Source: Alphaproteobacteria bacterium (GTDB lineage Bacteria; Pseudomonadota; Alphaproteobacteria; SP197). From it: a DNA stretch of 64,000 nt. This document shows, one piece after another, positions 41,540 through 47,764 of the stretch (position 1 is its first letter; each line of letters opens with the position of its first letter). The DNA is taken from contig OZ219747.1 in the NCBI GenBank assembly GCA_964291265.2, positions 1,216,001 to 1,280,000 of the forward strand. Reading direction: 5' to 3'. The translations under genes and the position numbers were made by a program. The notes beneath the pieces are model-generated. The model made no database searches. It was not told the origin of the DNA and was given only the letters and a program-made list of their open reading frames with translations.

Positions 41540-41762
41540 CTTAGGCGGTGTCGCGAAGGTGGCGCAGCGCCCGGATCACCCTGTCGATGCCGCGGGGGTC
41601 GTGACGCAGGATCTCGCGGTACTTCTCGAACCAGTGGGGCGCCGCTGCATGATCGGCGGCCACGCGCAGATGCTCGCAGGCATGCCAGAAGTCGTGTTGA
41701 TGGCTGCATAGAACGGCGGGATTTCGGCGATTTGCCGCGCTTTGTCAGGGTCGTGTTTCTTC

Positions 41763-41801
41763 CCTGTTGTCAGGTCCTATTGTCACGTCCTGTTGTCGTG
41801 G
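41763..41801 (+). repeat. Three tandem 13-mers (cctRttgtc core) near the element end
   Basis: cctgttgtcaggt cctattgtcacgt cctgttgtcgtgg; another cctattgtcg at 41845; mirrored in copy 1. Confidence 0.7.
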
Positions 41802-42178
41802 GTTCAGTGTTCGGCTGATTGTCTCCCCGAGCGCCGCCCGTTTTCCTATTGTCGTTTTGGTCCGGTTCGGATTGTTCCGTCGGCCTCTGCTTCGGTCTTG
41901 GTGACGGTTGCCGGGAGGGTTTCGGTTCCGAGGCACTCGCGGGATCGTCTGTTTTCCCTGTGGTCTGGGTCGTGTTGTCCGGTCCCGGGGCGGCGTTTTT
42001 GCCGCCGCCCCGGGTGGATGCTAGATCGGCATCGAAAGAAAGAGCGATGCGATGCCGGGCAGAGTTGTGATGACGCCCCCCGGCGCAGCACCCGGACGAG
42101 CCGGTCACGGGGGACCGAACTCCCGTGTATTGTCGAGCCATTTTGCGTCCGGGTCCACCCCCGCTCTCGAGACGGATC

Positions 42179-42655
42179 GTGTGCACGACGGGACGACTGT
42201 TCAACTGCAAGCGGTGTCAGCGGCAGGTTGTTCTCTGCCGGTCGTGTGACCGGGGGCATGTGTATTGCTCCGATGAGTGCAGGGAGCGGTCCCGGATCGA
42301 GCGGCGCCGCGCGTCGCGTCGTCGCTACCAGAGCACGCTGAGGGGCCGTGAGACGGGCCGTCACCGCCAGCGGCGTTACCGGCTCCGCAAGGCGGAGGAG
42401 GCGCGTGCGTTGAAGGCCAGGGCGGCGATGCTTGCCGAGATCATGGGCACGCAGACGTCTGCTGTGGTGCTGCTTGGCGACGTTCCGGCGGTGTCTGGAG
42501 ACGCCGGTTCCGAAGAAATCGTTACGGACCACCCTTCCCGACTGCTGCCGACCTCCCTACCTGCGGTTGTGAAGGCGCGAGAGCGACGCGAATCGCCGCT
42601 TCGGTGCGCCCGGTGCGGACGGGTCGTGACGCATGTGGTGCTGAGGGACCTGTGA
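42179..42655 (+). CDS. Cys-rich zinc-ribbon / Arg-rich protein (copy 2)
   Basis: CKRC...CRSC...YCSDEC...CARCG; start uncertain. Confidence 0.7.
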   Translation: MCTTGRLFNCKRCQRQVVLCRSCDRGHVYCSDECRERSRIERRRASRRRYQSTLRGRETGRHRQRRYRLRKAEEARALKARAAMLAEIMGTQTSAVVLLGDVPAVSGDAGSEEIVTDHPSRLLPTSLPAVVKARERRESPLRCARCGRVVTHVVLRDL

Positions 42656-42687
42656 TGCGGCGTTGAGGAACCAAAGGGAGGGAGTTC

Positions 42688-44181
42688 ATGGCGATCGACG
42701 AGGACACGCGGGCGACGATCGTGCGGCTGTCGCGGGCCGAGGGCTGGGCTGTGGGGACGATTGCCCGGCATCTCGGCGTGCACCACGGCACGGTGACGCG
42801 GGCGCTCAAGGCGTCGGGGCAGGAGCGGCGGCCGCGGGCCAAGCTCATCGACCCCTTCGTTGCCTTCCTCGGGGAGCGTCTTGAGGCGTCGCCGGACCTT
42901 CCGGCCAGCACGCTCTGGCGACAGGTCGTGGCCCTGGGCTACCGCGGCGGCGAGGATCACTTCCGTCACGACCTGCGCCGCCTCGGGCTGAGGCCGGTGA
43001 AGAGGCCCGAGCCGTCGCTGCGGCTGAGCTTCCTTCCGGGCGAGCAGGCGCAGGTTGACTGGGCCGAGTTCGGGAAGGTCCGCATTGGCCGGGCGGAGCG
43101 CAGGCTCATGGGGCTTCTCGTCACCCTCAGCTACTCGCGCCAGACTGTCCTGAGCCTGTTCCACGACGCGCGGATGGCCAGCTTCCTGCAAGGCCATGTC
43201 GAGGCTTTCGCGGCATTCGGGGGTGTGCCGCGGAGGCTTCTGTACGACAACCTGAAGAGTGCCGTGGTGACGCGCCGCGGCAAGGCGGTCACCTATCATC
43301 CGATGCTGCTCGGCCTCGCGGCCCACTATGCCTTCGAACCGAGCGCCGCCTGGCCCAGGAGCCCGCAGGAGAAGGGCCGCGTGGAACGCCGTGTGCGCTT
43401 CGCGCGCACCGGGTTCTTCGCCGGGCGCGACATCACGGTCCCGCTCGGCGAGCTCAACGCCGCGGTTCGGGAGTGGTGCTTCGGCGCCGCCGCGGAGCGG
43501 CCCTGGCCGGACGACGACAGTCTCCTGGTGCGGGACGCCTTCGCCCGGGAGAGGGAGCACCTGATCGTCCTTCCCGTCGACCCCTTCCCGCATCACGAGG
43601 TCCGCCCGGTGCGCATCGACAAGACCTGCCACGCCCGCTTCGACACCAACGACTACAGCGTTCCGGGTAGCTTCTCCAAGGCCCTGCTGACGCTGGTCGC
43701 CGACCGCGACGAGGTCCGCATCCTCGACGGCGCCGACGAGGTCGCGCGCCACCGACGCTCCTACGACAGGAAGCAGGCCGTCACCGATCCGGAGCATGCC
43801 AGGGCGATCGCCGCGGGCAAGCGGCGGGCCCGCTCCATGAGCGTCCGCGACCGGGTCCTGCGCACCGTGCCGCGGGCCGAGGAGATGCTGGCGCGCGCCG
43901 GGACCAACGGGCGCAACGTGGCCTCCTGCGCCCGGATGCTGGAGACGCTTCTCAACGCGCACGGCGCCGACGCTCTCGACCGGGCTGTCGCCACGGCGCT
44001 GGAGCGCGGCTCGTGCCACCCCGAAACCGTGCGCGTCATCATCGAAGAGCGCCGCCGGGAGCAGGGCCTGCCGCCCCTCAGCATCGCCGACGACGGCCGC
44101 GGCGGCCGTGGCACGACGCCGCGGGGGACCGCTCTCGACGCCTACGACAGGCCCGAAGCCAGCGCCAGGAACAAGACATGA
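42688..44181 (+). CDS. istA: IS21 transposase IstA (copy 2)
   Basis: Same motifs as copy 1; differs at PADP/PVDP. Confidence 0.93.
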   Translation: MAIDEDTRATIVRLSRAEGWAVGTIARHLGVHHGTVTRALKASGQERRPRAKLIDPFVAFLGERLEASPDLPASTLWRQVVALGYRGGEDHFRHDLRRLGLRPVKRPEPSLRLSFLPGEQAQVDWAEFGKVRIGRAERRLMGLLVTLSYSRQTVLSLFHDARMASFLQGHVEAFAAFGGVPRRLLYDNLKSAVVTRRGKAVTYHPMLLGLAAHYAFEPSAAWPRSPQEKGRVERRVRFARTGFFAGRDITVPLGELNAAVREWCFGAAAERPWPDDDSLLVRDAFAREREHLIVLPVDPFPHHEVRPVRIDKTCHARFDTNDYSVPGSFSKALLTLVADRDEVRILDGADEVARHRRSYDRKQAVTDPEHARAIAAGKRRARSMSVRDRVLRTVPRAEEMLARAGTNGRNVASCARMLETLLNAHGADALDRAVATALERGSCHPETVRVIIEERRREQGLPPLSIADDGRGGRGTTPRGTALDAYDRPEASARNKT

Positions 44182-45759: not shown

Positions 45760-45785
45760 CCACGTCCGTCACAAGGAGACCACTC

Positions 45786-46076
45786 ATGCCCCTCACGCCC
45801 GCCGAAAAGCAGCGGCGATACCGGGAACGGCGCAAGGCCGGCATCCCTCCCGTCCACACCCCAAAGCACCGTGACCGGCGCTCGCGACCGCAACGCTGGA
45901 ACGACGCCGTGGCCGAACTGCGCGCCCTGCAGGACGAATGGCGTGACCACCTCGACAGCATCCCCGAAAGCCTCCGTGACACGCCTTACGGAGAACGCCT
46001 GCAGAGCGTCGCCGATGCCGACATCGAGGCCCTCGAGGACATCGAACCGCCACGCGGCTACGGAAGGGATACGTGA
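45786..46076 (+). CDS. Small conserved hypothetical protein (orfE)
   Basis: MPLTPAEKQRRYRERR...RRSRPQRW..AVAEL..LQ...PPRGYGRD; AAGGAG upstream; alternative ATG at 45756 overlaps the toprim stop. Confidence 0.7.
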   Translation: MPLTPAEKQRRYRERRKAGIPPVHTPKHRDRRSRPQRWNDAVAELRALQDEWRDHLDSIPESLRDTPYGERLQSVADADIEALEDIEPPRGYGRDT

Positions 46077-46645
46077 TCCCGCAAGACCCTTGAACGCGGT
46101 CACGCGTTACCATCCAGGAATGAGAACGTCTCACCCCGACGCGCTTCTCAGCCTCCCCGGGAAACCCCCGGGCCGTCCAAACGACACCGCATCACGAGAC
46201 TGCCGCAGCCGCTGGCCGGACTGGCTTACAGGTCGCAGCATCCGCCCGAAAACACTCAACGCCTGCCGCACCCTGCAGGACGAATGGCGTGACCGCCTCG
46301 ACAGCATCCCCGAAACCCTCCGTGACACGCCTTACGGAGAACGCCTGCAGATCGTCGCCGATGCCGACATCGAGGCTCTCGAGGACATCGAACCGCCACG
46401 CGGCTACGGAAGGGACACGTAATCTCGCAAGACCCTTGAACGCGGTCACGCGTTACCATCCAGGAATGAGAACGTCTCACCCCGACGCGCCTCTCAGCCT
46501 CCCCGGGAAACCCCCGGGCCGTCCAAACGACACCACATCACGAGACTGCCGCAGCCGCTGAGCCGCAGCAACGCCCGATCCGCCGCCGGACTGGCTCACA
46601 GGTCGCAGCATCCGCCCGAAAACACTCGACGCCTGCCGCACCCTG
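45925..46645 (+). repeat. ~346-bp tandem duplication in copy 2
   Basis: ccctgcaggacgaatggcgtgacc begins at both 45925 and 46271; copy 1 has one unit. Confidence 0.88.
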
Positions 46646-46862
46646 CGCCGCCGCAACCGCAACGCACGCAGCCTCTTCGCCCAGCGCAACAGAAACCGTC
46701 AGCTCTCCAGCCTCGAGATCGTCCCGCCCGACGAACCACGACGAGGACGGAGAACGCCAGAACGAAACCACGCGCAAAAGCCTGAAGCTCCCCTCCCACA
46801 TCACGTTCCACAAACGCCGAACGCCAGAAAACGCCGACCGGAACGACATCGTCAACGTCAAT
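46528..46862 (+). pseudogene. Internally deleted, diverged copy of the toprim gene
   Basis: Aligns to 45151-45357 and then 45604-45730; TGG>TGA; mirrored at about 19280-19612 in copy 1. Confidence 0.8.
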
Positions 46863-47764
46863 GCAAGACCAATGGGATCCAACAATAGGCAGAAAACAAA
46901 GACCGGGCGGACCTTCGTCCAATGCCGCACGTTCTCCTGTCGTGGTCACCCACTCACACGATCAGCGCCCAAAAGAGCGGTTCTCCGCCAATATCCCGCC
47001 GTTCTAAATCGCCGCCGACAAGTCGATCACCTCGGTTTCGGGCTCAAGACCAGAGAGGAAGGTCCAGTTGTCGGCGTCGGCGTCGGCGATGGCGCTGATC
47101 CTGATCGCGGGACGCTTGCGCCTGATGACCTCGCTTGCCAGCTGCGCCTTCAGCGTGCGCTTGCCGCGCTCGGGCATGCGGCCGAGATAGACGGTCTTCA
47201 GGCGCTCACCGTCGGCATCGTGGAAGGAGGGAGACTGTGCCACAGGGCGCCTCGCAACGGCCGTCCTCGCCGATCCGCAGCGCCATCATGGGATCGAACA
47301 CTCCTCGCATGGCCCGATACAACCGCAACACGGGCGCCGACTGCATCACCGTCCTCAATGGCATGGACGCTCCGGGACGCCCTGTGGCGCGTTTCTTCGC
47401 TACCGGCGACGCCCATCAGGCCCATGGCGTCCATGGCGCCCGTTCCGCCCTCCCCGTCGCGTGATGACGGCGAAGCGCGCAGGCGCGATGTCGTTCAAGG
47501 GCACCCTGTCAATGCAGGGTCCGTCCCGCGACACCGGAACCGGGAGGGCGTACCGACCGGCGTGCTGCCTGGCAGGGCCCTGTGGCGACGAAGCGGCATT
47601 GTTGCGAATCGGCTCGGCACCGGAGCGGATTGCACCGTGGGCCCGTCGTCTGCCTGGCATGTACGCGGGCTGAACACGGCAACCTCATGTGATCGCGCCG
47701 TCTAAGCCTGTGTCGGGAGAAGCGAATGTTGCGAAGTGGCGCCTGCCGGTCTGCTGGTGCCGGC

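Follow-up and report, generated by a model that had tools for sequence, protein, structure and literature searches.

An IS21-type transposon with a conserved gene for a predicted DnaG-like primase in Alphaproteobacteria

Canonical IS21 is a two-open-reading-frame (two-ORF) insertion sequence (IS) that, according to the account in PMC10122671, mostly leaves 5-bp target duplications and shows weak target specificity. Here we describe a larger relative, found in a 64,000-nucleotide stretch of an alphaproteobacterial genome (contig OZ219747.1, positions 1,216,001 to 1,280,000; hereafter the window), that carries a gene for a primase-like protein of the DUF3991/Toprim type (toprim) directly behind its transposase and ATPase genes. 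With the canonical members IS21 and IS5376 it shares the IstA DDE transposase, the IstB AAA+ ATPase, the TG...CA ends, and the mostly 5-bp duplications. Unlike them, it contains the primase gene, an extra conserved ORF for a predicted Zn-binding protein (Zn ORF), and a predicted structured leader, and it spans 4.05-5.3 kb. Having more than two ORFs, the element is filed as IS21-derived and not as canonical IS21. The primase gene is not a one-off passenger of this element, and we discuss below what it may do.

Several described systems invite comparison. Conjugative primases, namely RP4 TraC, R64 SogL, and the relaxase-fused Toprim_2 proteins, have in common with the toprim product a Toprim_2 domain, a DWND motif of the DaN- type, and a DnaG-like core; in contrast to their setting, the five ORFs of the element include no transfer gene resembling those of a type IV secretion system (T4SS). 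IEE and TnGBS, on the other hand, are functional analogues only. As presented in bioRxiv 2023.06.07.543989, the IEE primase acts on copy-out IS families, with IS21 among those listed. IEE promotes excision and is a PrimPol-helicase of the AEP type, whereas the element studied here encodes a predicted DnaG-type primase internally. TnGBS is described in PMC3942029 as a DDE transposon that itself supplies help in replicating a circular form; its Mutator-type transposase, plasmid replicase, and conjugation module are absent from the five ORFs. Finally, Tn7 with TnsE likewise combines a transposase and an AAA+ ATPase with a third gene whose product is akin to proteins of the replication fork (as set out in PMC10293859). 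Unlike Tn7, the element yields no TnsA or TniQ match and inserts without replication-strand bias. A further precedent may be PrmN1 of Bacteroides NBU1, a term that yielded no paper in the literature search. No IS21 element with a primase is described in the literature searched, with ISfinder, TnCentral, most subscription journals, and supplements lying outside that search.

Five ORFs on the plus strand (the Zn ORF, istA, istB, toprim, and orfE) lie between the ends of the element (Table 1), and the ORF list and the alignment of the ends bear out this arrangement as it had been given in the initial annotation of the window. The overlapping junctions it had pointed to could also be read off: istA and istB meet in an ATGA at 44178-44181, and istB and toprim overlap by 14 nt (44866-44879). 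In addition, toprim and orfE meet in a second ATGA at 45756-45759. IstA scores 222 bits against NF033546 (cut-off 160), and its catalytic residues D124, D187, and E233 are kept in 25, 27, and 27 of 27 close homologues, respectively. IstB matches PF01695 with 171 bits (cut-off 24) and reaches 191 bits against NF038214, slightly below the cut-off of 200.

The toprim product has a predicted DnaG/T7-type primase core, with primer synthesis as its predicted activity. In a profile search it scores 50.2 bits for Toprim_2 (cut-off 22.1) and 20.7 bits for DUF3991 (below the cut-off of 24.5 in the window copy), so the original domain assignment stands for Toprim and falls slightly short for DUF3991. The motifs TESAVD, DHD, and DWND, reported as intact from the start, are all present; the last fits the DaN- motif pattern as given in PMC5512222. 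A structure model based on an alignment of 67 sequences has a predicted local distance difference test score (pLDDT) of 91; a single-sequence fold of the N-terminal domain reached a pLDDT of 45 and was not used. Residues 94-292 of the model match T7 gp4 primase, DnaG, and Twinkle with Z scores of 15.3, 13.6, and 13.1 and root-mean-square deviations of 4.0-4.8 (4.0 over 181 aligned residues for the T7 primase, 4.8 over 183 for Aquifex DnaG). These matches span the whole two-subdomain core, and topoisomerase and RNase M5 rank lower, aligning over about 90-115 residues. The early doubt that the protein might have no Toprim fold is thus met by a predicted DnaG-type primase fold. When the protein is aligned with the host DnaG (probability 58%, E 1e-4), E194, D198, D247, and D249 fall on the EGYMD and DGD motifs; the same comparison reveals no C-terminal helicase-binding domain in the toprim protein. 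Among 48 homologues, E194 is found in 45, D247 in 42, and D249 in 43, most misses being gaps in fragments.

In the host genome (4.83 Mb, two contigs), left and right ends of the element pair up 36 times; 30 of these pairs delimit full-length copies of 5.2-5.5 kb, and the element accounts for about 4.1% of the genome. Protein identity among the 30 full-length copies is 96-100% (the exception being one Zn ORF at 87%), and the element is recently expanded within this genome. Its left end, TGTTGATG... (41695), and its right end, ...CCGACA (47020), are identical at 37 of 60 positions as inverted repeats, and terminal repeats ending in CA are kept in relatives. The sub-terminal motifs near each end look inverted and not like direct L1/L2 and R1/R2 repeats, judging the alignments by eye. 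Target duplications measure 5 bp at 23 of the 36 end pairs, 6 bp at four, and 7 bp at two, and are absent at seven; re-pairing nested copies with the outer end gives three further 5-bp duplications. The initial annotation had seen the unit twice, with separate duplications. Both duplications (AGTCG and TTTCAAC) were recovered, the number of copies proved far larger, and the second of the two window copies, a variant of reduced length, is interrupted by an IS66 element.

Linkage between the primase gene and the transposition genes extends well beyond this host. Among 51 related loci, istB lies directly upstream in 41, spread over 10 genomes, and the remaining 10 are toprim fragments. In five other genomes with at least two comparable copies, the gene lies in elements 4.05-4.7 kb long, between TG...CA ends that are flanked by duplications of 5-7 bp. 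Searching 33 genomes of the host family for IstA brought up proteins of 48-67% identity followed by istB and toprim in three other genomes, one IstA of 47% identity without toprim, and one further match that is a truncated istA. Close IstA homologues, which might have turned out to lack the gene, therefore keep it. In both the IstA and the IstB tree, 10 primase lineages (seven of which are the query or were first found via the primase) lie on one side of a branch with a support of 100 and eight lineages without primase on the opposite side; the primase-marked branch extends to 49% IstA identity. Going by these trees, one primase acquisition would be enough to explain this IS21 clade. Since primase-less relatives mostly keep the Zn ORF, this ORF is a trait of the wider subgroup, and the primase is the later addition. 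The conserved core consists of four genes (Zn ORF, istA, istB, and primase), and the first idea of a five-gene moving unit holds for these four and not for orfE. The element is spread patchily across different alphaproteobacterial groups, with any match at all in six of 22 congeneric genomes; scans of metagenomes and viruses returned distant relatives only (7 and 21 loci), none of them matching these transposases.

The toprim gene is held under purifying selection at the level of the transposase. Over 21 pairs of seven lineages, the median ratio of non-synonymous to synonymous rates (dN/dS, by the Nei-Gojobori method; pairs not independent, and a GC content at third codon positions, GC3, of 0.84-0.91) is 0.376 for toprim, compared with 0.361 for istA, 0.319 for istB, and 0.579 for the Zn ORF. 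The pairwise dN of toprim correlates with that of istA (rho 0.91). Within the host genome, a stop codon interrupts toprim in one of the 30 copies, and its polymorphism (two synonymous changes, three non-synonymous changes, and one stop) is too sparse for a selection test. These data largely refute the simplest alternative, namely that a single capture from a plasmid brought in the gene as neutral cargo, which has travelled with the element since: its dN/dS is on par with that of the transposase. A single acquisition does suffice for the clade, the element has a real passenger in orfE, and the genomes are repeat-rich (22% of the main contig), so that gene captures come easily. Nevertheless, at 50-80% identity the catalytic residues hardly vary, and a duplicate of toprim in the tail of the element has decayed with the first copy intact. 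Altogether, we consider neutral carriage highly improbable.

What would a transposon gain from a primase? Copy-out/paste-in transposition has been proposed for IS21 in PMC11208146, the conversion of a figure-eight to a duplex circle by replication is outlined in PMC7780238, and Toprim_2-type primases prime transferred single-stranded DNA in the description of PMC5512222. Building on these accounts, we propose, with a confidence that stops somewhat short of an even chance, that the primase primes the second strand of a displaced single-stranded copy-out circle. IstA would nick one strand at one end and join that strand to the other end, giving a figure-eight. Host synthesis from the free 3'-OH of the donor would then displace the circularised strand, and the element-encoded primase would prime this displaced single-stranded circle. 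The resulting duplex circle would be integrated by IstA and IstB with a duplication of about 5 bp. As the circularised strand has no 3'-OH, it would need de novo priming, a job that the family already does. The gene would act as an enhancer of transposition and not as a requirement. Simple insertion from a circle predicts matched duplications, and these are found at most copies. The linkage of the gene to istB, the purifying selection, the conserved acidic residues, the predicted fold, the relaxase-fused relatives, and the recurrence of the family in three other transposon architectures (see below) likewise speak for this reading.

Critically speaking, several observations weigh against second-strand priming. 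The genome contains no end-to-end junction of the element; in the contigs of three public runs (one study) no end-to-start joint was seen, and contigs lose rare forms, which makes them uninformative. The hosts encode DnaG and PriA of their own, and primase-less IS21 elements are abundant in the same genomes (e.g., 15 copies in G401). Within the subgroup itself, primase-less relatives with 42-47% IstA identity, mostly with a Zn ORF, do without the primase, and the five plasmid-borne ones examined have an ORF of 61-73 amino acids behind istB. The protein raises questions as well: its N-terminal part aligns with the zinc-binding domain of DnaG and lacks the Cys ligands of that domain, and D198 is replaced by N in 19 of the 48 homologues. 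Lastly, dS is distorted by the high GC3, the pairs used for dN/dS lack independence, and there is some circularity in the tree, since seven of its 10 primase lineages either are the query or entered through the primase.

Two candidate explanations were set aside. One held that the hosts lack restart functions; it is ruled out, PriA being intact in all five genomes searched. The other regarded the leader of the element as a primase-specific origin; it finds no support, since primase-less relatives show hairpins at the same place, as judged by eye.

TnsE-type targeting in Tn7-like transposons biases insertion orientation by the direction of replication. The insertions of the present element show no such strand bias: of 35 chromosomal copies, 16 share the orientation of the leading strand (p 0.74). 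Repeats are not enriched as targets either (nine of 36 copies vs a repeat content of 22%), and no target consensus is evident by eye. This map bears on a second alternative, in which the protein would be an adaptor or target selector that binds single-stranded DNA or primer junctions (at forks or on incoming conjugative DNA) and recruits IstB in the way TnsE or TniQ does for TnsC, priming being secondary or dispensable. The idea draws on the position of the primase gene directly behind the ATPase gene, and overlapping it, in two unrelated transposon types, and on PMC10293859, according to which TnsE arose by co-option of a primosome-like fold and no target selector is reported for IS21. With neither a strand bias nor a repeat preference, the insertion map adds no support for it. 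Moreover, the catalytic residues are conserved, and in a second IS21 type (see below) the primase gene is convergent to istB and hence uncoupled from it. We judge the adaptor role unlikely, though worth keeping in mind. In the same strand test, two repeats read as group II introns (G000 C2, near 1376265 and 181995) gave 14 of 16 and one of 14, respectively, a strong replication-strand bias. Several copies of the element are inserted in other copies, so strict target immunity is absent. At G000 C2 4237410-4258495, a single 5-bp duplication (CGTGC) brackets two element copies plus 5 kb of other repeats, an arrangement that may be composite or nested.

The same primase family also occurs in other transposons. 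We took 19 regions around other Toprim_2 matches from four of these genomes: in 14 the primase is accompanied by a transposase and an AAA+ ATPase, in one by the ATPase only; three contain toprim fragments, and one is unrelated. These regions define three further elements, all multi-copy and delimited by ends and duplications of their own, each with a DDE transposase and an AAA+ ATPase. The first, 3.4 kb long, is an IS21 from a different subgroup (31% IstA identity), in which the primase gene is convergent to istB (L067, L072, L075, L001); at L001 1134-7457, this element sits inside istB of a copy of the studied element and itself contains a third IS21. The second, of 4,164 bp (L069 2457-6620; L079, L081, L128-L130), encodes a Cys-rich ORF, an rve/Mu-type transposase, an AAA_22 ATPase, and a primase overlapping the ATPase stop, i.e., the gene order of the studied element with a different transposase. 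The third, of 5.16 kb and present at seven places in the host genome, consists of a Cys-rich ORF, an rve transposase, an AAA_22 ATPase, an added AAA_25 gene, and DUF3991/Toprim; judging from its domains, the AAA_25 and DUF3991/Toprim products are possibly a helicase-primase pair inside a transposon.

The primases of these three elements group together in a single clade (100/99), with IS21 and rve types intermingled, and are about 28% identical to the primase studied here. In this second clade (430 homologues), none of the 120 matches listed has lost any of the four main acidic residues; dN/dS is 0.35 and 0.29 in two single pairs; and a 400-genome sample of the phylum gave a single weak match. 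Two independent primase captures were also considered, as a quick tree split the clades, and are not claimed here. By an approximately unbiased test on the 32 of 45 rows kept, a single origin is not rejected (p 0.117), and the deep forks are not settled by the careful tree. On a broader scale, it is conceivable, though doubtful in our eyes, that IS21 and Mu/IS481-like elements make up a self-priming class, having domesticated and exchanged conjugative primases with which they turn their own displaced single-stranded circles into duplex DNA without the host primosome.

Another possibility is that the gene is kept for something other than transposition, for instance a nuclease or repair function of the Toprim fold or a protective effect on host or element, although the family occurs in transposase-plus-ATPase elements in the fetched regions. 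Toprim folds do include nucleases (so the account in PMC5862659), and selection by itself leaves the beneficiary unnamed. However, the model matches the whole primase core, above topoisomerase and RNase M5 domains, and together with the repeated association with transposition genes this makes such a benefit appear decidedly unlikely to us.

Outside transposons, the family has a clear link with plasmids and relaxases, as the initial annotation had supposed. Of the long outside relatives, nine of 12 examined (picked among the 150 matches listed) have an N-terminal relaxase, further relatives sit in transfer regions, and 505 plasmid records contain the family (331 conjugative, 32 mobilizable). 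The gene could thus serve horizontal spread, making incoming single-stranded element DNA duplex (after conjugation or as a mobilised circle) or letting circles replicate transiently, like the TraC and SogL primases or the TnGBS replicase. Such a role would match the job of the family described in PMC5512222 and would suit both the relaxase-fused or transfer-linked relatives, many of them on conjugative or mobilizable plasmids, and the patchy distribution across alphaproteobacterial groups. On the other hand, a profile search of the five ORFs found no relaxase, T4SS gene, or helicase within the ends, and the relatives are compact at 4.05-4.7 kb, the shortest having about 160 bp after the primase gene, with no origin identified. 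We therefore rate horizontal spread as a rather improbable main function.

Returning to the priming of copy-out circles, IS21, described with two genes, has been well studied structurally as a model, and the resolution of its single-strand intermediates is, in the account of PMC11208146, only proposed. The branch with an intact primase, its matched primase-less relatives, and the three further element types together offer a direct test of whether and how such circles are primed. If the broader view of self-priming transposons were true, such elements would carry a gene devoted to one step in their replication. The element likewise provides a first functional handle on DUF3991/Toprim proteins, DUF3991 being scarcely treated in the literature searched.

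The leader, a predicted multi-stem structure upstream of the Zn ORF, has 95.5% of the cells in its alignment paired and two-sided changes at five of 36 pairs, and many of its changes are C-G to U-G, fitting an RNA on the plus strand. Structure controls were modest (14-45 of 500 shuffles, z -1.75), the leader has no Rfam match, and a promoter search of the element found no sigma-70-like promoter. For the Zn ORF, a start at 42125 had been given at first; the GTG at 42179 is probably the right one. Both this ORF and orfE match unnamed Atlas clusters only. Among seven other lineages with the region in view, orfE is present in one, and it also occurs in an IS110 element of the host genome; it is thus a passenger. 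This IS110 element (L060, G000 C2 2591488-2593465) is 1,978 bp long, occurs in four copies, and carries the orfE homologue (78%) behind its transposase. In the tail of the window copy, the second toprim has lost its middle, E194 included. All feature coordinates are collected in Table 1.

Table 1. Features of the primase-carrying element and related sequences (window positions unless a locus is named)
Feature	Position	Strand	Remarks
Element in window	41695..47020	+	IS21-type, 5.3 kb
Left target-site duplication AGTCG	41690..41694	.	target is another multi-copy element; empty site present in public contig
Right target-site duplication AGTCG	47021..47025	.	
Left terminal inverted repeat (TG...)	41695..41744	+	internal inverted motif pair
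Right terminal inverted repeat (...CA)	46971..47020	-	
Predicted structured leader, upstream of Zn ORF	42041..42167	+	conserved
Cys-rich ORF (predicted Zn-binding), 158 amino acids	42179..42655	+	also in primase-less relatives of this IS21 subgroup
istA, IS21 DDE transposase, 497 amino acids	42688..44181	+	D124, D187, E233
istB, AAA+ helper ATPase, 233 amino acids	44178..44879	+	Walker A and B intact
DUF3991/Toprim primase-like gene, 297 amino acids	44866..45759	+	E194, D198, D247, D249, DWND 281-284
orfE, 106 amino acids	45756..46076	+	dispensable passenger
Decayed tail	46077..46870	+	partial second orfE and internally deleted second toprim, 81-83% DNA identity
Second window copy, 4,974-bp variant	19120..26543	-	7-bp duplication TTTCAAC; toprim intact at 23378-22485
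IS66 within orfE of second copy	19822..22263	-	8-bp duplication
5.16-kb element	L059 (G000 C2 460796-465955); L076, L077		

Some further observations concern the surroundings of the two window copies. The IS66 element in the second copy contains an ORF of 133 amino acids at 21709-22110 (minus strand) with a weak match to adenine methyltransferases (PF02086, E 0.019). An IS1634 transposase at 39710-41458 adjoins the first copy, within the same target element. Further upstream, at 36345-38840, the window contains long arrays of 27-bp repeats, which we take to encode RTX-type calcium-binding nonapeptides.

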